Source of the DNA: Dysosmobacter sp.
Lineage (GTDB): Bacteria; Bacillota; Clostridia; Oscillospirales; Oscillospiraceae
Direction of reading: 5' to 3'
DNA length: 64,000 nucleotides
Assembly (NCBI GenBank): GCA_041859815.1
Contig: JBFLFX010000001.1
Location: 245-64,244, forward strand
The notes beneath the pieces were generated by a model that had not been told where the DNA came from, did no database searches, and saw nothing but the letters and a program-made list of their open reading frames with translations. Below, piece after piece: positions 7,617-62,394 of the stretch (position 1 is its first letter; every line of letters starts with the position of its first letter). Made by a program: the position numbers and the translations under genes.

Positions 7617-9422
7617 TCAGGCCTCCGCTTTGCCGGCAAGGCGGAGCTGATACCGCTGCAGCGCCACGGAAAGAGAGATCTTTCGCTCCCCGCCGTCGGT
7701 AAACTGCAGCATAGCAATGTCACCCTGCCGGACGGCAATCTCGCCTAATCCGAACCGCCGATGCACCACCCTCAGCCCCGGAACATAAGGCGCGGTATCT
7801 TTAGGCGGCCCGGAACGGATGGCGCGGGCGCCGGGTTTCGGCGCCGGGCGCGCCGGCGCCCGCTTCGATTTCTCTTGCGGAAACAGGAAGGAGGGAAACG
7901 AGGAGGCCAGCTCCTCCCGCCGAAACCGGAACACAGAAAGCTGCCGCTTTGCCCGGGTCATGCCCATATAAAACAGCCTTCGTTCCTCCCCCAATGCAGC
8001 GTGTTCCTCCGGCGCGGCGTCCGGCCCCGGCAGCACCTTGGACAGAATACCGTCCGCCACGTCCGCCAAGATCACACGATCGTATTCCAGCCCCTTGCTG
8101 GAGTGAATGGTGGAGAGAATCAGATCGCTGTCGGGGTCCGCCGTGCCGCCCTTCACGATACCGCGCAGCTCTTCCAGACGCGCCAGCAGCCGCTCCGGCG
8201 TGGATTTCTCTGCGCCCAGCGCCTCCAGAATCTGCACCCTGCTCCTATCCGCACTGCGGCTCTCCAGATATTCCCCGTAGCCCATGAAATACACAATCCG
8301 GTAAACCGCCCTGTCCGCCTGTTCGTCCAGCAAATTGGTCAGGTGGGTGTGCAGCGCCCGGCAGCGCTGCTTCGTCCATGCGGAGCATTCCGCCAGCTTT
8401 GACAGAACCGGCAGAATCGGCTTCTCCGTCCGGGGGCTCAAGGCAGCGGCTTTCTCCGCCGCGGCTTTGCTGATGCCGGAACTGAATTTGTAATAAATCC
8501 GCAGGAAGAGATCCCCGTCCGTGCCGCCGCGGGCAAAGCGGATGATATTCGCCACGTCCCGCACCGTCCGATTCGTGAAAAAGCCGCCGTCCGTCCGGCG
8601 GCAGCGGTAGCCAATGCCCCGGCGGTTCAGCAGGTCGATGGCCGGCAGGGCGCTGTCGTTGTCCCGGTACAGCACCGCCGTCTGCGCCCGGCGGTCGTAA
8701 ACGGAAAGCTCCTCCACCGCCGGGCTGTCGCCGCGGGTGGGCTGAATGTGCTTGCGATGCCGCTCCCGGTTCTGCTGGATAAAGCGATCCGCCGCCTGCA
8801 CAATCTGCCGGGTAGAGCGGTAATCCCGCTCCATCAGCAGCACTTTCTCACCGGGATAAGCCTTTTCAAAGGATGTCAGCGCCGCCGGATCCGCGGCGCG
8901 AAAGCCGTAAATGCTCTGATCCTCGTCGCCCACCATAAAAAGATTCCGCCCGGTCAGCAGGCGGAGGATGCCGTGCTGAATTTTGGAGGTATCCTGCGCC
9001 TCGTCCACGCAGAGATACGGATATTTTTGCCGGAACGACCGCAAAATTTCCGGGCAGCGGCGGAGAATCCGATCCGCGTAAATCATCTGATCGTCATAAT
9101 CCATCAACCGCCCAACCGCCGCAGGGATGTTCTGTTCCGTCACGCCGACGTATTTTTCAAGCGCTTCCCGTCCCCGTTCCATCTCCTCCAGCAGCGCGTT
9201 CAGCACTGCCGCCGGATGTGCGGAACCGGTATAGAGCCCCGTGGTTTGCAGATAGCAATCCTTTGGAATTGTAAAATAGCTCAACACGCCGGTGAGACGG
9301 CCTTCTTCAAAATATCCCAGCAAACCGCAGTCGTCTTGCCATGCGCATCTCTCAAACTCCCGCAAAGGCCGGGATTCCGTGGGGTAAAGCGGATAACTCC
9401 GCATTCTCGAATCGCCGCACAA
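7617..9422 (-). CDS. UvrD/PcrA-family helicase-like protein lacking the Walker A region (possibly a pseudogene)
   Basis: Helicase motifs II (CVDEAQDTS), III (VGDEDQSIYGFRAA), V/VI (STIHSSKGLEYD, RRLFYMGMTRAK) and a C-terminal VHRRFGLGEI tail are present. No GxGKT/S motif is present. The first ~100 aa are unrelated, and no SD precedes either candidate start. Confidence 0.7.
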   Translation of the reverse strand: MCGDSRMRSYPLYPTESRPLREFERCAWQDDCGLLGYFEEGRLTGVLSYFTIPKDCYLQTTGLYTGSAHPAAVLNALLEEMERGREALEKYVGVTEQNIPAAVGRLMDYDDQMIYADRILRRCPEILRSFRQKYPYLCVDEAQDTSKIQHGILRLLTGRNLFMVGDEDQSIYGFRAADPAALTSFEKAYPGEKVLLMERDYRSTRQIVQAADRFIQQNRERHRKHIQPTRGDSPAVEELSVYDRRAQTAVLYRDNDSALPAIDLLNRRGIGYRCRRTDGGFFTNRTVRDVANIIRFARGGTDGDLFLRIYYKFSSGISKAAAEKAAALSPRTEKPILPVLSKLAECSAWTKQRCRALHTHLTNLLDEQADRAVYRIVYFMGYGEYLESRSADRSRVQILEALGAEKSTPERLLARLEELRGIVKGGTADPDSDLILSTIHSSKGLEYDRVILADVADGILSKVLPGPDAAPEEHAALGEERRLFYMGMTRAKRQLSVFRFRREELASSFPSFLFPQEKSKRAPARPAPKPGARAIRSGPPKDTAPYVPGLRVVHRRFGLGEIAVRQGDIAMLQFTDGGERKISLSVALQRYQLRLAGKAEA

Positions 9423-31867: not shown

Positions 31868-31958
31868 CCGTTTTTGACACACACCGGTGAAAATTGCCGG
31901 ACCCGATTTCACACAAAAGAATTGGGGATGACCCGCCGTCTTTCTAAAAAAACGGTTA

Positions 31959-32024
31959 GGCCCTGTTTAAAAAATCGCCGCGCTCATCTGATCACCCAAA
32001 CACGTCGATTTTTCAAACAGGGCC
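31959..32024. repeat. 66-bp palindromic MITE-like element, coreless copy Z
   Basis: The ends ggccctgtttaaaaaatcg ... cgatttttcaaacagggcc match as inverted repeats at 18 of 19 positions. TGATCA (31989-31994) sits exactly at the dyad centre. Confidence 0.75.
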
Positions 32025-32153
32025 TGACCATATATGTGGGGGAATGTTTTTGAACAGAAATATTTGGGCGTTTCGGCAATTTATCCGACGACTTGAACGA
32101 TCAAGGGTCAAATATTCACTTCCAAACAATTTTGATGGGGTACGGGAGAGATC

Positions 32154-32858
32154 ATGAAAAAATCGATCGGAATGATTGGCGGCATGGGCCCGCTGGCAAC
32201 CGCCGACTTATTTTATAAAATCGTAAAAAACACCAGGGCGCAAAATGACCAGGAGCATATTCGGATTTACATCGACAATAATACGGCAATTTCGGATCGG
32301 ACTGCGGCCATTCTAAATGCGGGGCCTGATCCGGTTCCGGCTATGACGGAGTCCATTCGGAAGTTGGAAGCGTGCGGAGCGGACTGTCTGATTATGCCGT
32401 GTAATACCGCCCACTATTTCCTTCCGCAGCTTAAAAAGGTTACCAAACTGCCGTTTGTGAGTATGCTGGAGGTGACTGCCTCGGCCTGCGCGGAGCGGTA
32501 TCCCGGAAAAACGGCGGGATTGCTGGCAACAACGGGAACCCTGGAATCACACCTGTACGATCAGGTGCTGCAGGCTGAAAAGGTGCCGTATCTGCTGCCC
32601 TCTGAAGAAAATGAAAGCCGCCTGATGAAAATTATCTATCGGGGCGTCAAAGGGGGCGCCGCCATGGAAGAAGTGTGCCCTCTCATGGAAAAGATGCTGG
32701 AGGAGATGCTGGCGGGCGGCGTCGATTATTTTATTCTCGGCTGTACAGAACTGCCGCTTGTTTTTGCTTATCTTCCGGCACCGCCGCCCTCTGTGGACCC
32801 GACCGAGGAACTTGCAAAAGCAGCAGTCCGGTTTTGCGGGTATGAGGTGCAGGAATAG
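32154..32858 (+). CDS. aspartate/glutamate racemase family protein (aspartate racemase-like)
   Basis: IGMIGGMGPLATADLFYKIV, MPCNTAHYF and ILGCTELPL give the two catalytic Cys contexts. Confidence 0.85.
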   Translation: MKKSIGMIGGMGPLATADLFYKIVKNTRAQNDQEHIRIYIDNNTAISDRTAAILNAGPDPVPAMTESIRKLEACGADCLIMPCNTAHYFLPQLKKVTKLPFVSMLEVTASACAERYPGKTAGLLATTGTLESHLYDQVLQAEKVPYLLPSEENESRLMKIIYRGVKGGAAMEEVCPLMEKMLEEMLAGGVDYFILGCTELPLVFAYLPAPPPSVDPTEELAKAAVRFCGYEVQE

Positions 32859-33134
32859 GGGTAGCCTGTCCGGTTTTCCATCACGGAAATCGTTATACTA
32901 CATGGAAAGAGGAGAACCCCCTACCGGGGCGGTTGTTGATCAAAAGGCAATTTTTACTAACAGGAAAATACGATACCGGTTTTCCGCGAGAGGATTGTCT
33001 GATGTGAGGGAATGCCATGGCTTCGCAGCAGCGCCCTGCGCAAATACAGAAGTTGATTCTGTCACCTTCGATACAGCAATCTTTACGGTGTTTGCAGATG
33101 CCGCCCTTTAAGTTTTTATTCGGAGTCGTTTACG

Positions 33135-33310
33135 GATTACCTGCATCAGCAGCTGAACCAGCTCTCCGGGCTGAATGCTGAAATGCTGTATTGATACCGG
33201 TATCTTGTCCGCTGTCTGAATTCAGCCGGGCATCTGAATGTCCCTGTGGCGGAACTGGCGCAGGAGCTGAGATTTCAACCTCTAAGATGGAACAGGCGCT
33301 GTATGCCGTG
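33135..33310 (+). pseudogene. remnant of a sigma-70 family region 4
   Basis: DYLHQQLNQLSGLNAEMLY*YRYLV....VAELAQEL, then a frame shift to ISTSKMEQALYA. It resembles L..L...E..+..RY......ELA.ELGIS.S.V but is broken by a stop and a frameshift. Confidence 0.3.
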
Positions 33311-33687
33311 CCGGCGTTTGAGCCTCCGGAGCCGGCGCGCGGAATTTATAGAGTGTCTGTTATTACAGCTGGTGCAGGGCAGCAGTTTTACCGAGCTGAA
33401 CATTTATCCGGCCCGCGGGGAGCTGCCGGAGAGACTTCCAATCTGCTTGCTTGGCGCGGGGACGGGGCAAATCCGCAGAGCGGCGGGCGTTGTCCCGTCC
33501 CTGAATTCCATTCCGCCCTCCGGGTTCAATGCCGGTGAGGATATTTCTCATGCGGAGCCGGGAGCTTTTGTAGACGGTCAAAAGGGAAAATTATTATTGA
33601 AATAAACGAACGGTTTTTGCCGAAGCTTCCCCTGAATTCGGAGGACTGTGCGCTTTTGAAAGATCCGCAGTATCCGGATGCGCATAC

Positions 33688-34911
33688 CTACCGTGCGCGG
33701 GCGAAAAGCTGTTTATTCCATCCTCTTTTGTCAATCAGCCCTTTAAAGATAGCATCCGTGGTGCAGACGTCCGCCCAGGGATTGCATGATTCAATAAGCG
33801 CCCGTACCTTTCCCCCAGAAATCAGAAGCGGGGAAAATCCGATCGCAATCAAAAGCGTATATTGTTTTTCGTTCAGCTGTGAGCATAAAAGCTGCGTCCA
33901 GGCGTTGTCTCTGGCAAAAGCAAGCCGATAGTAAAGGGGGACCAGCTCCCTGTCGGGAAGGTACTGATCCAGAATGCCAATCTCTCCGCCCGGATGCCGC
34001 GCCTTTGTTCCCTGCCCGATGGTCAGTTCGGAAACAATACGGGAAATTTCATCCGCTTCGTCCCAGTCATATTTGTTTTCCCCGGCCTTTTTTGCGAGAA
34101 GCCCGGACGGATCCGCCGCCCCGCGCGTCTCTGCGCAAAGCGCCCTCCGCGCGAGGCGATCAAACAGCCGTTTGAGCTGCTCCAGACTCTTGGGTTGAAC
34201 TGATCTGGCAACAAGGTCGGATGAAAGCTCCGAACAGATTCTATCCGCAAGCTCTCTGGGGCTTGCCGTACCGTTTTTTTCCACCGTCTTTAGAAGTTCC
34301 CGAAAAGACATCCCTTTTGCGCCGGCATATTCTCGGTGGGTAATGAGCGTTTTCACGGCAGAATTTTCTCTATGTCCCAGCTCGTAAAGGGTCTCGATGT
34401 TATTGCAGTAGCAGGCGTCGACAACCAGCAGATCGATGACGCGCCCCATGGCGTTTGCCGCCAGTCCAAGCGCGGCTGCCAGTTCCGGGAGCCCCATAAT
34501 TGCGGGATATTTTCCACTATAGTCGTTCATCAGGCCTATATATTCGCATGCGTGACCGCCCAGAATAAGCATTACATGATCCGTATCGGTATTTTTGAAC
34601 CCCCAGAGGAGAAAATCATACAGGCTCTTGGGATCCGCCATATTGATCCTGCCTAAATCGTTCGGTGGGATTTTTTCGCCTGCGCGGAGTTGATGGCGCC
34701 GCACTCCGTCCCATCTCTCTCGATCCGGTCTGATGCCGGGCCTTATGATTTGTACGGAGCTTTGCTCCAGCCGTCCGGCTTCAAGCAGAACCTTTGTCTG
34801 CCCGTCTGCGGCCGCCGCTTCAAGCTCGCAGTACGCAGCCGCTATTTCCGGCTCCAGTTCCCCGTTGCCGTCCAAATAGGCCAATATCGTCCAACCGGGA
34901 ATTCGATCCAT
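33688..34911 (-). CDS. clostripain-like peptidase C11 family protein, no signal peptide
   Basis: WTILAYLDGNGELE at the N-terminus. The His context is MLILGGHACEY and the Cys context LLVVDACYCNN, in the spacing typical of C11. GGGGGGAGGAAAA serves as SD. Confidence 0.65.
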   Translation of the reverse strand: MDRIPGWTILAYLDGNGELEPEIAAAYCELEAAAADGQTKVLLEAGRLEQSSVQIIRPGIRPDRERWDGVRRHQLRAGEKIPPNDLGRINMADPKSLYDFLLWGFKNTDTDHVMLILGGHACEYIGLMNDYSGKYPAIMGLPELAAALGLAANAMGRVIDLLVVDACYCNNIETLYELGHRENSAVKTLITHREYAGAKGMSFRELLKTVEKNGTASPRELADRICSELSSDLVARSVQPKSLEQLKRLFDRLARRALCAETRGAADPSGLLAKKAGENKYDWDEADEISRIVSELTIGQGTKARHPGGEIGILDQYLPDRELVPLYYRLAFARDNAWTQLLCSQLNEKQYTLLIAIGFSPLLISGGKVRALIESCNPWADVCTTDAIFKGLIDKRGWNKQLFARAR

Positions 34912-35034
34912 AAAGTTTTCCTCCCCCCTCTTTCCTTCTACTCACATTGTATAATGAAACCTCCAAGTTGGTACTTTTGTGTATACCAGCCCGGAGGTTG
35001 CTTAAATATTTATCATGTGATCCGGCATCTATTC

Positions 35035-35193
35035 GGTCTTGTTTGAAAATCGATACGTTTGGATGATCTGCCGAATTTCGCGTCGGACTTCGTTGAATTC
35101 CCTCGCCATAAACCAATGATGCCTGCGGAAATTTGCCTTGCCCGACACAAAGTTCGTCAATCAGATGAGCGCGGGGACTTTTTAAACAGGGCC
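35035..35193. repeat. 159-bp composite repeat copy X (palindromic arms plus 91-bp core at 35069-35159)
   Basis: The arms match Z and Y in inverted order relative to Y. The core aligns with the Y core in the same orientation at ~85% by eye. Confidence 0.75.
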
Positions 35194-35210
35194 TGGAGGA
35201 TGGATCCATG

Positions 35211-36278
35211 CTAACGAAAGAAACGCACGCCGCGGGAGGCCGGGGCCGTATCGTTGAGCAATATTGCGACATTGTTTGAAAAGTGATTTGTAACCGCGAG
35301 ATCCGTTCGGCCGTCCCCGTTAAAATCGGCGGCTACTAATCCCGCGGCGTAAGAGCCAACAGCGGTAAACTGCGGCGGCCAAAAGGTGCCGTTATTCTTT
35401 CCCGCCAATACTGCAACATTATCGGAATCATTATTTCCAACTGCCAAATCGATGATTCCGTTGCCGCAAAAATCAGCTGCAGCGATTCCCTCAAGACTTG
35501 AACCGACAGAAACAAAGGATGCCGGCTGGTAGGTACCGTCACCATTGCCAAACAGGATCGCGATATTTTGAGAATCAAAATTTGTGACTGCCAAATCGGG
35601 CTTGCCGTCGCCGTTAAAGTCGGCCGCCGCGATCTCCAGGGGGGTAACACCTACAGGATAATATACGGCCGGTTGGAAAGTGCCGTCGCCGTTGCCAAGC
35701 AGCACGGCGATGTCATTTGAAACGGTATTCGCCGCGGCTAAATCGGGAATGCCGTCGCCGTTAAGGTCTGCGGCCACGATTCCGTACGGATAATCGCTCA
35801 CGGAATAAGACACAGCCGGCTGAAAAGTGCCGTCGCCGTTCCCAAGCAGCACATTGACGTTGTTACCCCCCGCATCCGTGACCGCCAAATCCATTTGCCC
35901 GTCGCCGTTAAAATCGGCGGAAACTACCGTCAAGGGATTCGACCCGGCCGCAAACGCCGTAGCCGGCTGAAAGGTGCCGTCGCCGTTCCCGATCAGGATT
36001 GCAACGTCGCCGCCGTTTGAATCGGCGATGGCCATATCCATCTTGCCGTCATTGTTGAAGTCGGCGGCGGTAACCGAGGTCGGATTGATGCCTACGTCGA
36101 AAGGCACAGCCGCCTGGAAAGTGCCGTCGCCGTTCCCCTGCAACACGGAAACCGCTTCTCCGCCAATATCTGTTGTCGCCAAATCCATTTGCCCGTCGCC
36201 GTTAAAATCGGCAGCCGTTATTCCATAAGGGCCAGATCCGACAGGGTAAAACACTGCGGGCTTAAAAACCATACTCAT
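35211..36278 (-). CDS. FG-GAP/VCBS repeat protein, 7-bladed beta-propeller, no signal peptide
   Basis: Seven ~50-aa repeats each contain AADFNGDG.(M/P)DLAV....V.VLLGNGDGTFQPA. SD AGGGAG lies 7 nt before the ATG. Confidence 0.85.
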   Translation of the reverse strand: MSMVFKPAVFYPVGSGPYGITAADFNGDGQMDLATTDIGGEAVSVLQGNGDGTFQAAVPFDVGINPTSVTAADFNNDGKMDMAIADSNGGDVAILIGNGDGTFQPATAFAAGSNPLTVVSADFNGDGQMDLAVTDAGGNNVNVLLGNGDGTFQPAVSYSVSDYPYGIVAADLNGDGIPDLAAANTVSNDIAVLLGNGDGTFQPAVYYPVGVTPLEIAAADFNGDGKPDLAVTNFDSQNIAILFGNGDGTYQPASFVSVGSSLEGIAAADFCGNGIIDLAVGNNDSDNVAVLAGKNNGTFWPPQFTAVGSYAAGLVAADFNGDGRTDLAVTNHFSNNVAILLNDTAPASRGVRFFR

Positions 36279-36311
36279 TATAATTGCTCCCTAATTGTTT
36301 CGTTTATCTTA

Positions 36312-36471
36312 GACTCTGTTTAAAAAATCCCCGCGCTCATCTGATCGCCGGATTTTGCGTCGGGCTTCGTTGAATTTTCCTGCCATGAACCAATGATGCC
36401 TGCGGAACTTCGTCTTGCCCAGCTCAAAATTCGTCAGATCATCTAAACACGTCGATTTTTTAAACAGGGCC
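36312..36471. repeat. 160-bp composite repeat copy Y (arms plus 90-bp core at 36347-36436)
   Basis: ctgtttaaaaaatccccgcgctcatctGATC-core-GATCatctaaacacgtcgattttttaaacagggcc. GATC is duplicated on both sides of the core. Confidence 0.75.
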
Positions 36472-36989
36472 TAATAGATAAATCAAATTGAAACCGGCCC
36501 AAAGAATCGGCCGGGGTATCGTAATGGTTTTACCTGTTTTCCTGCTATATAATAGTATGCTTTTTTATCATCAATGTTTCTCAAACGCGGCGCGCGGAAT
36601 CCGTAAACGGTAAGCCCCGCACGGAATACGCCCGGCGCCGGTACGCGGTGGCAGAGGTCTGTCCCTGTCTTGCCGAGCGCATCGAAGCAGGCGCGGTTCA
36701 GCGCAGCGAAGTTGTGCGGGGCTGTTTTGAAAGCTCCCTTCCCAAATCAGGGTCAACTCAAAGAATTAGTCCGCGGGAGCGCGGAGGAAACGCTCAGCGG
36801 CTTGTTGTGAGCGAAGCTGAGAAAGGCATCATTCCTATTCATTTCCAAAAGCACAGGCTCTTGTCAAATTGCTTCCGGAGTGTCAGGTGGCACAGGCAGT
36901 CGATGGAATACCCGTCATACTGTAAAATCAAGAGAGATCCCGTAGAATACGGAAGCCCTCTTATTTTTCAGAATAACATAAAATGGAAG

Positions 36990-37636
36990 GTTGCTACCAT
37001 TCCGATAAATAGCTATACTAGACGCAAGGATAACTTTGCGCCGGAGGGCTTGATATTATGGATCGGCAGCAGCGCTGGAAGCCGCTGCAGGACATCTGGA
37101 GGCCGTGGAGACGCTTTGCTCCGTGTAGAGCGGTTGGGCAAGAGCCAAGCGCGCCCTTTACCGAGAAGGTAATCCGGGATATTCATTCTCCGGTGTTGAT
37201 GGATTGCCCCGAAGATAGGGGCGTGTATCACCGTATCCCGGTGACAATTTTCGGGGCCTTTGGGAAACCGCCGCAGCTGTATCCGGCGCCGCAGCAGATG
37301 GAGGCGTTGACGCTGGATCGGAAGCAGAGCCGAACGCATTCCCTTTATGCCGCCGCTTTGTTTCATCTGAAATTCGAGGGTGTGCATTCTTTCATCGACG
37401 GCAGCGGCCGGACAGGAGGGTCACTGAGGAACTTCTCGCCGATGAAAAACAGTGATCCGCCCGTCAACGTGAAATTCATCAATCGCCGCGCCTGTTACGG
37501 CTGCTCTGACGCATACTCCCGGGACGGCGATGCTGCTCCCTAGCGGGATCTGGTGGCAAACTGTGTCAGCCTGCGGCTGGAGATGTATTTGCGGGTGTTG
37601 GAGGGACAAATGGTATGGATAAATATGAGATACTGA
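36990..37636 (+). pseudogene. Fic/DOC family pseudogene
   Basis: TEKVIRDIHSPVL...DRGVYHRIPVTIFGA...LYAAALFHLKFEGVHSFIDGSGRTGGSLRNF..PPVNV. The Fic motif HPFxxGNGRxxR has degenerated to HSFIDGSGRTGG. An in-frame TAG sits at 37541-37543, after which the homologous frame continues to 37636. Confidence 0.55.
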
Positions 37637-39453
37637 AGCAATACTTCGGACATTCCGCTTTCCGAGAGGGACAGGCAGAAATCATCGAGGCAATTTTAAG
37701 TGGCCGCGACGCCCTTGGCATTATGCCCACAGGCGGCGGCAAAAGCCTGTGCTATCAGGTGCCCGCGCTGATGCTCGGCGGTATCACGCTGGTAATTTCG
37801 CCGCTGATTTCCCTCATGAGGGATCAGGTAATGGCTCTGAAAAACGTCGGCGTCAGCGCGGCGTTTATCAATAGCTCTCTCACTTCGGCGCAGATGCAGG
37901 CCGTGTATTGCAATATGCGTGCCGGGGCATACAAGATCATCTATGTCGCACCGGAGCGGCTGGACGGTGAGGAATTTGTATCCCTTGCGCAAAATTTGCA
38001 GGTTTCTCTTGTGGCGGTAGACGAGGCACATTGCATTTCTCAGTGGGGTCAGGATTTCAGGCCGAGCTACCTGCGGATTCTTGCCTTCATTCAAAAAATG
38101 CCCGACCGCCCGGTGGTGGCCGCATTTACTGCCACTGCGACGACGCGTGTGCGTGAGGATATTGAGCGGATTTTGAAGCTTCAAAATCCGCTGAAAATTG
38201 TGACCGGCTTTGACCGTCCAAATTTGAATTTTGAAGTGCTGCATCCCAAAAATAAATTGGCGGCACTGTGTTCATTGATCGATGCCCGACCCGGTCAAAA
38301 CGGTATCATTTACTGTGCCACGCGAAAGAGTGTTGAATCCATTTGTCAGAAACTGCAGACAGACGGCGTTCGGGCAACACGTTACCATGCGGGGCTGTCC
38401 GGTGAGGAACGCCGAAAAAACCAAGAAGATTTTCTTTATGACCGCTATGCCGTCATGGGGGCAACCAACGCGTTTGGTATGGGAATCGACAAATCGAATA
38501 TCAGTTATGTGATCCATTATAACATGCCTAAAAGCCTTGAGGCGTACTATCAGGAGGCCGGGCGTGCCGGGCGTGATGGGGAGCACGCCGACTGCCTGCT
38601 GTTATATTCTCCGGGCGACGTGCAGACGGCCAAGTTCCTAATGCAGAGCTCTGGTGAAAATACGGAACTGACGGATGAGGAGCGGGCCGCTGTGATGGAG
38701 CAGGATAGGAAACGGCTGCAGGAAATGATCGGCTACTGCAAAACGACGTCTTGCCTGAGAGGGTATATTCTGGACTATTTTGGGCAGGCGCATCAAAAAA
38801 GCTGTGGAAACTGCGGCAACTGCAGAGCACACTTTTCGCAGCAGGACATTACGTCACAGGCACAAATGGTTCTCTCCTGCGTCAAGCGCGCTTATGATAA
38901 GTTAGGGTATTGCGTGGGTGCGACGCTGATTATGCGAACTCTTCGCGGCAGCGCGGAGCAGCGAGTACTGGAGCTTGGGTTGGATCAGCTTTCTACATAC
39001 GGGCTAATGAAGGGGATCGCAGGACCCCAAATCAAGGCGTATATGGAACAGCTTGAGGAAGATGGTTATCTTAAAACCGACCCGCTTCATGGCGGCGTAA
39101 TGCTCACAAAAAAATCGGGTGACGTACTGTTTCATGAAGAGCCGGTATTCATGATCACAAGGGCACCGGTGAAGGGGGAAAAGAGACGCGGAAGGAACAG
39201 AAGTGCCGCTGCGGCAGATATGGATCATGATCTGTTTACAGTGCTCAAAACCCTTCGCTTCAGGCTTTCACAAGAGGAAAATGTACCTGCCTATATTATT
39301 TTTTCCAATGCGGCCCTTTCCGACATGGCAGAAAAAGCGCCAAAAAATATGAGCGAGTTCCTGGAAGTCTCCGGGGTTGGCAGGGTAAAAGCCGCAAGAT
39401 ACGGAAAGGTTTTCCTTGAAGCAATTAGAAAATATGAGGAGGGCGGAAACTGA
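37615..39453 (+). CDS. recQ: ATP-dependent DNA helicase RecQ
   Basis: FGHSAFREGQAEII, MPTGGGKSLCYQVPAL, DEAHCISQWGQDFRPSY, the zinc-binding CGNCGNC and a C-terminal HRDC-like region. Confidence 0.95.
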   Translation: MDKYEILKQYFGHSAFREGQAEIIEAILSGRDALGIMPTGGGKSLCYQVPALMLGGITLVISPLISLMRDQVMALKNVGVSAAFINSSLTSAQMQAVYCNMRAGAYKIIYVAPERLDGEEFVSLAQNLQVSLVAVDEAHCISQWGQDFRPSYLRILAFIQKMPDRPVVAAFTATATTRVREDIERILKLQNPLKIVTGFDRPNLNFEVLHPKNKLAALCSLIDARPGQNGIIYCATRKSVESICQKLQTDGVRATRYHAGLSGEERRKNQEDFLYDRYAVMGATNAFGMGIDKSNISYVIHYNMPKSLEAYYQEAGRAGRDGEHADCLLLYSPGDVQTAKFLMQSSGENTELTDEERAAVMEQDRKRLQEMIGYCKTTSCLRGYILDYFGQAHQKSCGNCGNCRAHFSQQDITSQAQMVLSCVKRAYDKLGYCVGATLIMRTLRGSAEQRVLELGLDQLSTYGLMKGIAGPQIKAYMEQLEEDGYLKTDPLHGGVMLTKKSGDVLFHEEPVFMITRAPVKGEKRRGRNRSAAAADMDHDLFTVLKTLRFRLSQEENVPAYIIFSNAALSDMAEKAPKNMSEFLEVSGVGRVKAARYGKVFLEAIRKYEEGGN

Positions 39454-42280: not shown

Positions 42281-42557
42281 GCAGACGCACGGCTGCTGCC
42301 GGCGCTGTCAAAGCCGCTGCGCGGCGTGGCGCTCTGCGCCGCGGCAGTTCTACTTGATTCAGTTCAAAATTCAACATCATACATAAAGCACGCGGAGCTG
42401 AAGCTGGCTCCGCGTGCTTTTATCAAATAAAATGCGGGAGCAGCCTGCGCAAAGGTTGCTCCCGCGGAGAGAGGAAGAAAAGAACGTGAAAAAACGTCAG
42501 CTCTATCGAATCCCCAACAGATTGATGAACGATGCGGCATTGACCTACAGTGCCCGG
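42281..42557 (+). repeat. copy B of the ~270-bp repeat (partner at 24241..24509)
   Basis: See copy A. Here the repeat continues into the intact HTH gene that starts at 42486. Confidence 0.7.
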
Positions 42558-43202
42558 CAGGCGGGCAATGCGCTGTACAGCAAACGCAGCCGCCTCGGCC
42601 AATGTGTAATGAGCCTGGCCTATCTTGCAAAAGTGTCCGCGTGCAGTATCCCCACCGTCCGCAAAGCGGCGGAGGAGCTGGAAAATGCCGGCTACATCCG
42701 CCGCTGCCGCAATTATCAGTACAGCGAACAGGCCGGCCGCGTCGTCTACGCCCGCACAACCTATGTCTGCACGCTCTCAACGGCCCGGGATTATACGTTG
42801 GTTCCCCGCGAGGTATTTAGCTGGGAACTGACTTCCGGAGCGTTCTGCGTTTGCCTGTGCCTGTTCCAGCAGGCGGGCAATTCCGGCCGCGCGTTTCCGG
42901 CAATCCGGCGCATCGCCCAGCTGCTTGGCATGGGCTATGCCACGGTCTGCCAGGCGCTGGCGCTCCTTCGTAATCAGAGATTGGCGCTTGTACTGCATTG
43001 GAAAAAGCGGAACCACGCCTTCAGCATGAATTCTTACTTTATGCAGGGACGCGGGCAGCGGCAGGAAAAGGACTTTTTCGCATTGCCGGGCGCTTTCTTT
43101 CGTTCTTTTCTACACTCTATTGTAGATTTTGCAAGGACGGAAAGCAATTCCCATTTGCTATCCGGGGGAGTCTCATTTTTTGCAAACTGCCTTAGGACTT
43201 AG
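42486..43202 (+). CDS. helix-turn-helix / winged-helix protein typical of clostridial integrative elements
   Basis: GTG start after AGAGGAAG. Two HTH-like units are present (MSLAYLAKVSACSIPTVRKAAEELENAGYI and RRIAQLLGMGYATVCQALALLRNQ). Confidence 0.5.
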   Translation: MKKRQLYRIPNRLMNDAALTYSARQAGNALYSKRSRLGQCVMSLAYLAKVSACSIPTVRKAAEELENAGYIRRCRNYQYSEQAGRVVYARTTYVCTLSTARDYTLVPREVFSWELTSGAFCVCLCLFQQAGNSGRAFPAIRRIAQLLGMGYATVCQALALLRNQRLALVLHWKKRNHAFSMNSYFMQGRGQRQEKDFFALPGAFFRSFLHSIVDFARTESNSHLLSGGVSFFANCLRT

Positions 43203-57566: not shown

Positions 57567-59249
57567 TTATGCGGTCTGCTTATCCTGTGCATTGTGCTCT
57601 GTCCCGGATGGTGCCGGTGGTTGTGGCATCGTGCCAAACCATTCCTTCTGATTCACATAGCCGATAAATTTATAATGGATGTCCACCCGCTGGCTTTTGC
57701 TGCCATCGGGATTGATGGTTTTTTCATACACCACAATCTTTTCGATCAGTTCGTTGAGGATATGGGCATCCAGTTCCGTGATATCGGTGTACTTCCAGAT
57801 AATCGGCAGGAATTTTTCAATGTCGTCGTAAATCTTCTCACAGCGTGTAATCTCGGCTACCAGCTTTTCCCGCTGGCCCTTCAGTAATTCCTGCTCCCGT
57901 TCGTAGCCGGGGGCCATCGCCTGATACCGTTTCTCGCTGATGCGCTCCAACGCCGCATCCTCATAGAGCTTCGTAAGTATTTTTGACAATTCACCGACCC
58001 GCTTGTCCACAGCCTTGAGCTCGCGTTTGCAGCGCTCGGTTTCCTGCTTCTTCTTATCCGTTCTGGCGGCGATGAGCATATCCATGTATTTCTGCGTGGC
58101 GAGCTTTGCGGCGGATGCGTTGCGCCGGATGTCCTCCAACACCAGGCGGTTGAGGGTCACCCAACCGATGGCATGGGAGGTACAGCGCTGTTTCCCGTAG
58201 TTCTTGTAGACCCAGCAGGAGAAGCCGGTATATCGTCCCTTTTTTGCGTCGTAGCTCACATTCAGGGAGGAGCCGCAGTCGGCACACTTAACCAGCCCTG
58301 CGAAGGGCTGCACTTCGCCGCTTAAATTTTCCCGCCGTTTTGCGCGCATCATCTGATGTACCGTAACCCATATCTCCCGCGTGATGATCGGCTCGTGGGT
58401 GTCCTCGGCGATCACCCATTCCTCCTCCGGGGCCGCGATTCGCGTCTTATCAAAAAAGCCTTTGGTTTTTGTCCGTCCAAATACCGTTTGACCCAGATAA
58501 ACGCGGTTGTTGAGGATCGCCCGGATGGAGGTGGCATGCCAGTCGAAAGGCTTTCGCCAGTAATCACTGTTCTTGTAGTAATCCGGATTGTTCTGATTGA
58601 AATATGCCTGAGGGTTCAGAATACTGCGCTCCCGCAGAATTTTTGTCATCCGCACATAGCCGATGCCATCGGCGAACATCTGGAAGATCTCACGCACAAC
58701 GTCTGCGGCAGGAGGATCAATGATCAGTTTGTGCCGGTCGCCGGGATCTTTCTGATAGCCGAACGGCGCCCGGCTGCCGATAAACATTCCGGCTTTCGCC
58801 CGCGCCCGATGTGCCGCCTTTGTCTTGCTGGACGCCTGCCGCGCGTAGAAGGAATTGATGACGTTGGTGAATGGCAGGACGAGATTATCGATGCCGTTTT
58901 TTGAGTCGATGTTCTCCGCCACTGAAATAAAACGTACGCCTTTTTCCTCAAAGTAGTGTTCAATGTACATTCCCATTTGCGCGTATTCGCGACCGAATCG
59001 GGATAGGTCCTTTACGATCACCATATTGATGTTTCCTGACTCAATATCGTCCAGCATCCGCTTGAAGTTCGGGCGGTCGAAGTTTGTGCCTGACCAACCA
59101 TCGTCGCAATAATATCCGCCAATGGCAATGTGGTGGTCGCTGCAATATTGTGTAAGCAGCGTTTTCTGTGTCTGAATACTGCCCGATTCACCTACGCTGC
59201 CGTCATCCTGGCTGAGCCGGCAATAAATCCCGGCTGTTTCTGTTGCCAT
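57567..59249 (-). CDS. large serine recombinase
   Basis: Trimmed to MATETAGIYCRLSQDDG (catalytic Ser context). Resolvase domain (IVKDLSRFGREY), a recombinase domain, a zinc ribbon (CADCGS...C) and a coiled coil. Confidence 0.95.
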   Translation of the reverse strand: MATETAGIYCRLSQDDGSVGESGSIQTQKTLLTQYCSDHHIAIGGYYCDDGWSGTNFDRPNFKRMLDDIESGNINMVIVKDLSRFGREYAQMGMYIEHYFEEKGVRFISVAENIDSKNGIDNLVLPFTNVINSFYARQASSKTKAAHRARAKAGMFIGSRAPFGYQKDPGDRHKLIIDPPAADVVREIFQMFADGIGYVRMTKILRERSILNPQAYFNQNNPDYYKNSDYWRKPFDWHATSIRAILNNRVYLGQTVFGRTKTKGFFDKTRIAAPEEEWVIAEDTHEPIITREIWVTVHQMMRAKRRENLSGEVQPFAGLVKCADCGSSLNVSYDAKKGRYTGFSCWVYKNYGKQRCTSHAIGWVTLNRLVLEDIRRNASAAKLATQKYMDMLIAARTDKKKQETERCKRELKAVDKRVGELSKILTKLYEDAALERISEKRYQAMAPGYEREQELLKGQREKLVAEITRCEKIYDDIEKFLPIIWKYTDITELDAHILNELIEKIVVYEKTINPDGSKSQRVDIHYKFIGYVNQKEWFGTMPQPPAPSGTEHNAQDKQTA

Positions 59250-59281
59250 ATTGTTGCCCCCTTTCGCAACACACAATACCG

Positions 59282-59513: not shown

Positions 59514-60851
59514 CTACTGCAAGGCCTGCTGCCAGGTTTGCTCATCCTCATGGTCATCCGCCTTATGACCAAGGGCAATTTTCTTTTCACGCTCTTTGGT
59601 GAACACTTTTCGGTCTGTGTACGGATTCAGAGTTGTGGCATCCTTTACGGGAACATCGTCCTGAGTCCGTTCCAGAGCGTGTCCCAGCTGTGCCACATTG
59701 CCCAGAGCACCAGCAAGATTACCGGGATCAGTAGCCATGCCGGGCTGAGGCATGGCAGGTGCAGATGCGGAAGAGAGATACGCCGCGCGTTCTTTTTCCC
59801 AGCCTGCTGCATCGTCTCCCGCACTGCCGCCACATCCCGTGCCAGCACCGCGATCTGCTCCTGGGTCGGGTACGTTCTCGGCCTTTGGGAAAACTCCCGC
59901 ACAAGGGCCGCCTGCACGGCCACACGGTGCTCCAGCGAGGCCAGCATACTCATCAGTTCCGCCCACTCCGCCTGCGTCGGATGTGACTCCGGCTGTGCCG
60001 GTATGGCCGGCTCTTGCCGCATCATCGAACCCTGTGGATGATTCAGCCGTTTCAATTCCTCCATGGACAATTCCCGCTCGGATTCGGAACTCACGTTCCA
60101 TCGCCTCCTTCAAATATCGTTCGTCGTGCAGCCGGTCATCCCGGCACTTCATTCCACTTAGGGTTGTGTAAGTGATATTTTTTCTGGAATCCTGCCAGCG
60201 GATGTCGTAACCCTCGGTGCGCATCAGGGTGATGAACTCCTCACGGGTTCCGGCGTAGCGCATGCACTCGTCGATGGTGTCCATGAGCCGGAACTTCCAG
60301 CTCTCGCCCCGGGCGGCGGTGTGGTATTCCGCCGTGGACATGGACTTCACTTTTTTCTTTTTCTGGTCTTTCTGAAATACTGGCAGGTTAAACATCTCGC
60401 ACACCTGATCGTTTCGCTGCCTGAGCTCGACCAGCTCCGGTTCGCTGATGTGGAGCTTTCGTCCGTCCTCCAGTGAGACGCTGTTGATGATGAAGTGCGA
60501 GTGGACGTGGCCGCGGTCGGTATGGGTGCAGACCAGCACCTCGCGGCCCTCGAAATACTTACCAAGCTCCATCGCCGCCTCGTGCGCCGTGACCGGATCG
60601 ACGTCGGCACCCTTGGGGAAGGACTGTACCATGTGGAAAAACAGGGTTTTGTCATCCTTATGGTAGAGCAGCTTCGTACAGAGAAAATCGTCATAGACGC
60701 TTTCGGGTCGGCAATTGATGCCGCTGATCAGAGCCTGTCCCTGCCACAGCGTTTTCTCCTCCCGCTTCGTGTACGCCATGACCGCCGCCATGCAGGGACG
60801 GTTCTGCCCCCTGGGGTAATTCGTAAAGCTGATGATGGCTATTTCGTCCAC
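59514..60851 (-). CDS. relaxase/mobilization nuclease domain protein; start and 3' third uncertain
   Basis: HTDRGHVHSHFIINSV histidine triad. The N-terminus (V)DE-IAIISFTNY has an ATA (60842-60840) at SD-optimal spacing. The C-terminal third is Gly/Ala-rich and overlaps a better-looking alternative-frame ORF. Confidence 0.8.
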   Translation of the reverse strand: MDEIAIISFTNYPRGQNRPCMAAVMAYTKREEKTLWQGQALISGINCRPESVYDDFLCTKLLYHKDDKTLFFHMVQSFPKGADVDPVTAHEAAMELGKYFEGREVLVCTHTDRGHVHSHFIINSVSLEDGRKLHISEPELVELRQRNDQVCEMFNLPVFQKDQKKKKVKSMSTAEYHTAARGESWKFRLMDTIDECMRYAGTREEFITLMRTEGYDIRWQDSRKNITYTTLSGMKCRDDRLHDERYLKEAMEREFRIRAGIVHGGIETAESSTGFDDAARAGHTGTAGVTSDAGGVGGTDEYAGLAGAPCGRAGGPCAGVFPKAENVPDPGADRGAGTGCGGSAGDDAAGWEKERAAYLSSASAPAMPQPGMATDPGNLAGALGNVAQLGHALERTQDDVPVKDATTLNPYTDRKVFTKEREKKIALGHKADDHEDEQTWQQALQ

Positions 60852-61290: not shown

Positions 61291-62394
61291 CTACGCATCC
61301 TCCCGTGACAGGTGTGACGGCTGTGACAGCAGATTCGGTACTGGGCCTGTATCGGTTTTCCCGTCATTCCCGTCACTGCCGTCACCAACAAGAGCCAGAC
61401 GCAGCTCCCGACGGTCGCGGGTGCGGTGGGTTTCAAACGTAATTTCGCACGCCGCCAACTCGTCCCGGCAGCGGATCAGCCGCTTGGTCAGCGCGGCCGG
61501 GACGAGCGGTTCACCGCTCAGCTCCGCCAACGCTTCCGCCAGCTCCGTGGCTGTGCCGGTGAACGATTTGCGCTGGCTGAGAAATTCAGAGAGAAAAATA
61601 GTGAGCTTATCTTGCGGCCGTGGCTCCGTGGTAACGCTGTCCGAGAGTAGCTTCCAGATATGCGTTTCGGTATCAAACTCCAGCGTCAGCTCCCGGTACT
61701 CAATGTCTCGCCCGGTACAGTAAAGTGTCGCGGTGCTGCCGCCGCGCTTGTCCTTGCGAAGGACGAAGTTAGAGTCCGTCGCGCCGCTGATGCCTGTGGT
61801 GCCGGAAATCATGTTCATGGGATCATCGTCGTTCATTTTCCGCAGGTGGTGGATGAGCAGAATTGCGATGCGGTGTTTGTCCGCCAGCTCCTTGAGGATG
61901 CCGAGGTCGCGGTAATCGCTGGCGTAGGGATTGACATCATTCGCTATACCGCGGATGCGCTGGAGCGTGTCGATGACAATGAGCGCGGTGCCGGGATGCT
62001 CTTTGAGGAAGCGCTCGATCTGCTGCTCCAGACCGCCGCGGAGCTTTTCCGACATGGTGGCAAAGAACAGATTCGGTGGCGCGTCGTCCGTGATGTCCAG
62101 CAGCCGGTTCTGGATGCGGGAATAGCTGTCCTCCAGACAGAGGTACAGCACATCGCCTTGCACAGACGGGAACTCCCACACGTTATCTCCCTTGGCAACA
62201 CACAGGCACAGCCACAGTGCCAGCCACGATTTTCCCACCTTTGGCGCGCCAGCGAGGATGTGCAGCCCCTGGGGCAGAAGTCCGCCGATGGTGAAGCGGA
62301 TCGGCGGCAGCGGCGTAGTCATCAGGGTTTCGCCGTCTATGGCGTCCAGCCTGTGTTGGTTCACCGTAGCCGCTGGTTCTTTGGTAATTGACAT
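61291..62394 (-). CDS. AAA_25 / RepA-like RecA-fold ATPase of mobile elements
   Basis: HILAGAPKVGKSWLALWL (Walker A), LIVIDTLQRIRG (Walker B context) and AILLIHHLRK. Confidence 0.85.
   Translation of the reverse strand: MSITKEPAATVNQHRLDAIDGETLMTTPLPPIRFTIGGLLPQGLHILAGAPKVGKSWLALWLCLCVAKGDNVWEFPSVQGDVLYLCLEDSYSRIQNRLLDITDDAPPNLFFATMSEKLRGGLEQQIERFLKEHPGTALIVIDTLQRIRGIANDVNPYASDYRDLGILKELADKHRIAILLIHHLRKMNDDDPMNMISGTTGISGATDSNFVLRKDKRGGSTATLYCTGRDIEYRELTLEFDTETHIWKLLSDSVTTEPRPQDKLTIFLSEFLSQRKSFTGTATELAEALAELSGEPLVPAALTKRLIRCRDELAACEITFETHRTRDRRELRLALVGDGSDGNDGKTDTGPVPNLLSQPSHLSREDA

Follow-up and report, generated by a model that had tools for sequence, protein, structure and literature searches.

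The 64,000-nt stretch of Dysosmobacter sp. DNA analysed here (the window) contains a seven-bladed FG-GAP/VCBS propeller gene (35211-36278, minus strand; 355 amino acids with seven 147-nt units, assigned by Pfam) that is flanked on both sides by a composite repeat of odd geometry. The outer arms of the two copies are inverted with respect to each other, while their cores point in the same direction. This raises the question of how a core can come to be flipped relative to the arms that surround it, and whether the gene in between takes any part in the process.

Both composite copies were found where a preliminary description of this DNA had placed them, and their limits were refined to 35035-35194 (copy X) and 36311-36472 (copy Y). 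Read along the plus strand, X has the order B-core-A'. It starts with a B-type arm (35035-35068, outer to inner), whose final three nucleotides, ATC (35066-35068), form the left copy of a short duplication. The arm is followed by a 91-bp insert, the core (35069-35159; TGCCGAA...GTTCGTCA, with terminal inverted repeats of ~20 bp), and by an A'-type arm (the reverse complement of an A arm; 35160-35194), of which the initial ATC (35160-35162) is the right copy of the duplication. Y has the order A-core-B' and consists of an A-type arm (36311-36345) ending with GAT as the left duplication copy (36343-36345), a 91-bp core (36346-36436; CGCCGGA...ATTCGTCA), and a B'-type arm (36437-36472) starting with GAT as the right duplication copy (36437-36439). 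The distances to the propeller gene that had been reported before also held: X is separated from the stop codon by 16 nt, and Y from the ATG by 32 nt.

That the cores are direct repeats is supported by several comparisons. Aligned in the same orientation, they agree in 77 of 92 columns, compared with 58 of 96 when one of them is reverse-complemented, and for the central 51 nt inside the terminal repeats the counts are 45/52 (direct) and 29/56 (reversed). A repeat search of the region returned the core centres (~90 bp) as a direct repeat with 83% identity, blastn gave the direct match an E-value of 1.8e-22, and a 20-mer common to both cores occurs twice in the window, where 0.01 matches are expected. 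The same repeat search independently paired the arms the other way round: the right arm of X matches the left arm of Y, and the left arm of X the right arm of Y, both as inverted matches with 85% identity. Global alignments of X and Y likewise gave the best arm matches cross-wise and the best core match directly.

A third pair of arms was first located at 31963-32020 by a search with the outer-arm motif and belongs to copy Z (31958-32025, plus strand), an unoccupied, core-less hairpin repeat of 68 bp. In Z, the A arm (31958-31992) is joined straight onto the B' arm (31990-32025) with no core between them, and the two overlap at a single GAT (31990-31992). The hairpin has fold energies of -32.8 and -40.1 kcal/mol with z-scores of about -8 (-8.1 on the plus and -7.4 on the minus strand). 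A profile search of the window with models of the arm, the core, and the core ends yielded exactly six arms and two cores; a core standing alone, away from any host repeat, was not detected in the window. The examined sample thus comprises two cores and three host repeats, all three copies being intergenic and clustered in 4.5 kb of the ~91 kb sampled, for which the chance is ~0.007 under uniform placement.

The symmetry of the arms could have prevented an assignment of their orientation, but the six arms can clearly be sorted as either A (ctgtttaaaaaatcCCCGCGCTCAtctgatc) or B (ctgtttaaaaaatcGACGTGTTTAgatgatc). When the inner 24 nt are aligned, 21-23 of 25-26 columns agree for A-A pairs and 18-20 of 24-26 for B-B pairs, whereas A-B pairs reach only 13-17 of 24-27. 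Arm-arm pairing is furthermore strand-specific: X folds better on the plus strand (-22.0 vs -6.5 kcal/mol), whereas the minus strand is the better one in Y (-30.9 vs -18.4 kcal/mol) and Z (-39.3 vs -27.0 kcal/mol). The strand reading B...A' is the better-folding one because A and B differ partly by C/T transitions. This folding behaviour agrees independently with the arm types assigned from sequence, and together with the core and arm alignments it establishes that the inverted arms and direct cores noted earlier are real.

The anatomy of the junctions becomes apparent when X, Y, and Z are compared in a common A->B' frame. Z reads ...CATCT GAT CACCC..., Y reads ...CATCT GAT [CGCCGGATTTTG...TTCGTCA] GAT CATCT..., and the reverse complement of X reads ...CATCT GAT [TGACGAACTTTG...TTCGGCA] GAT CATCC.... 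The core is inserted at the identical nucleotide of the host repeat in X and Y, and a 3-bp direct repeat (GAT/GAT at Y, ATC/ATC at X) that is single in Z brackets each core. Parsing a 4-bp duplication (GATC) instead gives offset ends for the two cores, so that 3 bp is the consistent parse. Seen in the host frame, X and Y both have GAT as the duplicated triplet, and neither has the mirror ATC despite the opposite cores, which is recorded here as a counterpoint. Copy Z, the terminal inverted repeats of the core, and the flanking 3-bp direct repeat are three features that the preliminary description did not contain.

Within each core, the ~20-nt ends align as inverted repeats and pair in the fold (consensus TGMCGAATTTTGNGTCGGGC, with TG...CA ends), and the core alone folds as a hairpin because these ends are inverted repeats of each other. 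TG is the start at three of the four core ends and both right ends are CA; as a further counterpoint, the left end of the Y core is CG rather than TG. Relative to the A->B' frame of the host repeat, the core is in the (+) orientation in Y and in the opposite, (-) orientation in X. In both copies, core position 3 tells the two ends apart, with C on the left and A on the right. Since these end-diagnostic positions move together with the core centre, the whole 91 bp are reversed and not the middle alone. The host repeat of X is itself inverted in the genome with respect to that of Y, and the cores therefore appear direct and the arms seemingly swapped.

The core is hence a discrete 91-bp unit (35069-35159 and 36346-36436) that is small and non-coding, has terminal inverted repeats, and lies within a short target duplication, the structural features by which a MITE is recognised. 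No reading frame is open and conserved across both copies, and the idea that the core is a coding remnant was rejected on this ground. The element-derived open peptides, concatenated and compared with 5.8 billion proteins, gave no match with E <= 1, Rfam returned no match for the elements at either the E-value or the gathering threshold, and no tRNA genes were found. Taken as a whole, the junction anatomy is the one classically left when a small transposable element inserts into a target, here seen both empty and occupied.

The core is probably a MITE-like insert nested at the centre of a hairpin repeat, a near-symmetric target that it entered in both orientations. The first layer would be the 68-bp intergenic hairpin repeat, whose two halves (A and B') repeat each other imperfectly in inverted orientation, the difference lying in an inner block of ~10 nt, with Z presumably representing the plain state. 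The second layer would be the core as a 91-bp non-autonomous transposon-like element (MITE), inserted into the central TGATCA of the first and duplicating 3 bp (GAT) upon insertion. It would have entered the host repeat of Y one way round and that of X the other, and the propeller gene would just happen to sit between two occupied intergenic spacers. Two mechanisms had been put forward in the preliminary description. The first, in which a near-symmetric target received the core in both orientations, is supported by the empty Z, the identical insertion point, the 3-bp duplication, and the terminal repeats of the core; the second, an inversion across the arms, is not supported, as discussed below. 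The odd flipped-core geometry can in this way be accounted for by an ordinary process, one small mobile repeat inside another, and the repeats that flank the gene look like ordinary selfish DNA, in which nothing indicates a gene cassette or a DNA switch.

The insertion may have been made by a DDE-type transposase supplied in trans, which would recognise the centre of the hairpin repeat, so that either orientation is possible. TG...CA termini and a duplication of 3-4 bp are criteria of the IS3 family, some members of which are known to target palindromic repeats. By analogy, the TG...CA ends and the 3-bp duplication of the core point to this family, and an IS3-like transposase is our best guess from these ends, the duplication, and the palindromic-repeat targeting of some IS3 members. 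A profile of the core ends detected no autonomous element with matching ends in the window, the same-lineage contigs (which cover the genome incompletely), and the relatives, and the ends of an IS3-type element in a relative (L031) do not match those of the core. It is conceivable, and put forward here only tentatively, that the core represents an undescribed Clostridial transposon in its non-autonomous form, one that homes to the centre of a single specific hairpin repeat with single-nucleotide precision and in either orientation. If true, the consistent strand bias of 12-15 kcal/mol in the host hairpin would indicate that the transposon recognises a folded single strand, and the core would be an obligate parasite of another selfish repeat, that is, a MITE counterpart of IS1397 and ISKpn1.

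The stability of the three loci was followed in eleven other assemblies of the same lineage (~99.5% nucleotide identity, independent runs, mostly from activated sludge), which were recovered via exact-protein look-ups and each cover at least one copy. By its RecQ homologues, the host falls among Oscillospiraceae-like Clostridia, and reads of the lineage are available in SRR18116729, SRR18116732, SRR18116733, SRR18116734, SRR26562365, SRR3065626, SRR3065653, SRR3065760, SRR5895953, and SRR15661542. X is present with unchanged arrangement in seven of them (99-100% identical over the portion that each contig covers), and Y is unchanged and 100% identical in four, one of which continues into the gene. 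Z is core-less in all five assemblies in which it was found. Neither orientation nor occupancy polymorphism was detected at X, Y, or Z among the consensus sequences of the eleven assemblies. An assembled consensus is compatible with a minority orientation. As a last counterpoint, Z is a paralogous empty site, and no single locus was seen with and without the core among the eleven assemblies.

The copy number outside the window was approached through assembly breaks and database scans. Across independent runs, Logan contigs built with k=31 end at identical positions in the core or the A arm (35143, 35115, and 36319/36314), although X and Y have no 31-mer in common. These reproducible breaks suggest that further near-identical copies are present elsewhere. 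One practical consequence is that short-k assemblies of this lineage are interrupted at reproducible bases in these hairpins. No further copies were found in ~27 kb of additional same-lineage DNA beyond the window, a look-up of the right end of the window gave no match on record, and 93 kb of DNA from relatives with 79-84% RecQ identity contained no arm, core, or core end. A scan of a genome collection with the arm pattern gave 11 single matches in unrelated phyla, none of which has a partner arm or core, and these were for that reason rejected as chance matches. The A-arm pattern common to the three copies matched four times in a metagenome scan, always within coding sequence. Viral contigs, plasmids, and phages contained no core and only chance matches of half an arm. 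The element is absent from the genome and metagenome DNA collections scanned, where the arm-pattern matches are due to chance.

The alternative that survives best is that the ~160-bp unit of arms and core was the original MITE and that Z arose from it by internal deletion. Correia elements are mosaics of two terminal-repeat variants and occur in long and short forms, and Z would correspond to the short ones, with the two core orientations representing two old subfamilies. Slippage deletion classically acts on hairpins flanked by 3-bp direct repeats, and its product here would be exactly Z; the divergence between X and Y is alike in arms and core (~80-90%). We nevertheless consider this origin unlikely. 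It still requires a reversal of the whole core between the duplications, most simply by an insertion, and an origin in a single piece does not account for the 3-bp repeat or the terminal repeats of the core. For the most part, the proposal collapses into nested insertion with the direction of one step reversed.

Less probable still is that the composite is a single element in which a recombinase acting on the inverted arms flips the core in situ, as in fimS- or hin-type switches, with X and Y as its two states. Inverted sequence (the arms and TGATC/GATCA) does bracket the core, and a gene for a large serine recombinase lies inside the window (57567-59276). This gene is, however, 21 kb away within a low-GC mobile element and encodes an integrase-type architecture with DUF4368; no recombinase gene adjoins X or Y, and this one is the nearest. 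Since core position 3 flips along with the rest, only the ~5 bp that separate the core from the arm-diagnostic block would be available for the crossover. Moreover, the single consensus state per locus (X in seven and Y in four other assemblies) argues against an active inversion switch, and such a switch leaves both the core-less Z and the 3-bp direct repeat unexplained. The fixed loci, the complete reversal of the core with so little room for a crossover, and the lack of an adjacent recombinase leave unsupported the inversion across the arms that had been offered as the second mechanism. We do not count the element among the invertible switches, as defining features of that class were looked for and not found.

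It had also been proposed that the propeller gene may owe its mobilisation or capture to the repeats; X and Y would then act jointly as the ends of the unit. The copies do lie 16 and 32 nt from the ends of the gene with mutually inverted outer arms, the three copies fall within 4.5 kb, and the gene has no close orthologue. Inverted outer ends are, however, expected of any two copies of a palindromic repeat, and copy Z places the repeat in a neighbouring intergenic spacer as well. The unit of X, gene, and Y has no direct repeat around it, its outer flanks merely extending the arm palindrome, and no transposase is near. With a GC content of 0.55, the gene resembles its neighbours (0.51-0.54), among which are a C11 peptidase, a racemase, a Fic-like ORF, and recQ. 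The relatives with 79-84% RecQ identity have neither the gene nor the repeats beside recQ.

The comparison of related strains for presence or absence of the cassette, which had been suggested as a check, was carried out and returned a single structural variant. A segment of 3.2 kb (35528-38722) is missing in five same-lineage assemblies, and with it go Y, the Fic-like ORF, and two-thirds each of the propeller gene and recQ. The ends of this microhomology deletion lie inside the propeller gene and recQ, at an imperfect microhomology of ~12 nt, and not in X or Y. Because the deletion ends ignore X and Y, the gene was not gained or lost as an X-Y unit. No close orthologue of the propeller was found in any other context; the best matches are 51-60% identical and of the repeat-consensus type. 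The gene itself is intact at both ends, and P0066 aligns from its own residue 1. The possibility that the elements truncate a larger gene was rejected on the basis of this alignment start, and apparent homology running into X (tails of HSPs) was dismissed as read-through noise. The proposed capture is consequently unsupported and in our judgement most improbable: the element is not a composite transposon, as a duplication flanking the unit and presence or absence of the unit as a block were not seen, and the suggestion that the gene is a mobile cassette can be removed.

A related proposal was that the repeats supply the promoter and the terminator of the gene. Consensus scans detected neither in X, Y, or Z, and since such scans are weak evidence the proposal is unsupported rather than refuted. 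That the elements are retained because they serve the neighbouring genes as terminators, as stabilisers of mRNA, or as structures of the 5'-UTR, as their very stable folds (z = -8 for Z; -64.9 kcal/mol and z = -5.7 for the Y composite), the position of X and Z just downstream of genes, their 99-100% conservation between strains, and the documented effects of this kind for REP, ERIC, and Correia elements (PMC3184786) might suggest, is hardly probable as an explanation, as no T-run follows any of the hairpins, no sigma-70-like promoter lies within them, Rfam has no match, the strand co-transcribed with the neighbouring genes folds more weakly at X and Z, and the conservation does not exceed that of the flanking DNA (99.5%); such a function would in any case be compatible with nested insertion and not exclusive of it.

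Nested insertion can finally be placed among known systems, some of which resemble the locus in wording and others in mechanism. The flip and flop forms of parvoviruses and AAV likewise have an inner part that is reversed relative to an outer stem, but the likeness is one of wording only. Parvoviral flip and flop are products of hairpin transfer where a linear replicon ends, and nothing is terminal or replicative here. The fimS and hin switches share with our copies a short segment that occurs in two orientations between inverted repeats. Unlike those switches, our copies show the orientations at two separate loci, each fixed across strains and without an adjacent recombinase, and they come with an empty site and a target duplication, both of which the switches lack.

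The 68-bp arm repeat is similar to a REPIN (PMC3116915) in being composed of two inverted halves of ~30 nt with an asymmetric centre that form a long hairpin. The high copy number of such repeats (tens to hundreds per genome) was not observed, with three copies in the ~91 kb sampled; a 5' GTAG-type motif is absent, and no RAYT (Y1 transposase) gene was seen among the ORFs scanned in part of the window. MITEs are typically small, have terminal inverted repeats and a short target duplication, are intergenic, give hairpin transcripts, and are known from occupied and empty sites (PMC3184786). In size, terminal repeats, duplication, and intergenic location, the core is like the bacterial MITEs Correia/CREE, ERIC, Nezha, and RUP (PMC3184786). 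It has no sequence similarity to any of them, and whereas the variants of those families are internal deletions of a single element, two different elements are nested here.

In mechanism, the nearest precedent is provided by the insertion sequences that target REP units, namely IS1397 and ISKpn1 (IS3 family), ISPsy8, and IS621 and ISPpu9 (IS110 family). IS elements of five families insert within palindromic REP units, and joining their flanks rebuilds the REP (PMC1525189). Our locus shares the insertion at a fixed point of a palindromic intergenic repeat as well as the joined flanks that correspond to an intact repeat (PMC1525189). In contrast to these elements, the insert is only 91 bp long, encodes nothing, and has no autonomous partner among the sequences searched; its host belongs to a Clostridia lineage and is not a proteobacterium; and its target repeat is rare in the sampled DNA (3 copies in ~91 kb). 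If the precision of targeting holds genome-wide, the core would be a gram-positive and non-autonomous addition to the short list of palindrome-homing elements, and target and insert would form a defined pair with which the responsible transposase can be traced.

The three copies of the hairpin repeat, namely X (35035-35194) and Y (36311-36472), both carrying the MITE-like core, and the core-less Z (31958-32025), lie inside 4.5 kb of the window (31958-36472), and the remaining ~87 kb of same-lineage sequence analysed contained none. Within X and Y, independent k=31 (Logan) assemblies stop at identical bases (35115, 35143, 36314, and 36319), unlike SPAdes and MEGAHIT assemblies, which continue through. 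This difference suggests that the Logan-assembled samples contain additional, nearly identical copies of both the core and the A arm, one of the two arm types of the repeat.

The propeller gene between X and Y (35211-36278, minus strand) is itself internally repetitive. Positions 35286-36212 consist of seven 147-nt units with DNA identities of up to 91%, and a 36-nt run is identical at 35883-35918 and 36177-36212; together, these similarities suggest recent blade amplification or gene conversion. No obvious signal peptide and no close orthologue were found for the encoded protein, which is not present in a collection of 5.8 billion proteins.

The locus is also polymorphic, as five same-lineage assemblies (L039-L043) share a 3195-bp deletion corresponding to window 35528-38722. 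The deletion truncates the FG-GAP propeller gene as well as recQ and eliminates copy Y together with a Fic-like ORF, and its junction (GAAACAAA|TGATCGGCT) displays an imperfect microhomology of ~12 nt. In these five strains, a functional RecQ would be missing. The ~1.1 kb from Y to recQ (36480-37610) has a poor coding signal. It includes the ORF at 37058-37543 (161 aa), which other assemblies annotate as encoding a Fic domain and which has an odd, arginine-rich translation; it may be a decaying gene.

Further strain differences were observed in the left part of the window. The UvrD-like helicase gene (7617-9422) shows an in-frame length polymorphism, with strain L046 lacking window 8415-8876 and strain L047 lacking 8534-8725, and the called products across strains comprise 620, 514, and 427 aa. 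In strain L045 (106-kb contig), the genes left of the DUF4317 gene (window ~4555 leftwards; L045 1-7053) are wholly different, encoding POR, an MFS transporter, and acetyl-CoA hydrolase, and the ABC/FtsX and UvrD genes of the window are absent. This gene content places a rearrangement or indel breakpoint near window 4555.

On the right, strain L037 no longer follows the window beyond 40956 and instead carries phage-like genes, including a small terminase, DNA polymerase A, and a tyrosine integrase. In the window, ~38000-62400 forms a low-GC block (GC 0.41-0.47 versus 0.52-0.61 elsewhere) that is probably an integrative mobilisable element and encodes an HTH_36 protein (42414-43202), a large serine recombinase with DUF4368 (57567-59276), a MobA/VirD2 relaxase (59514-60851), and an AAA_25 protein (61291-62394).
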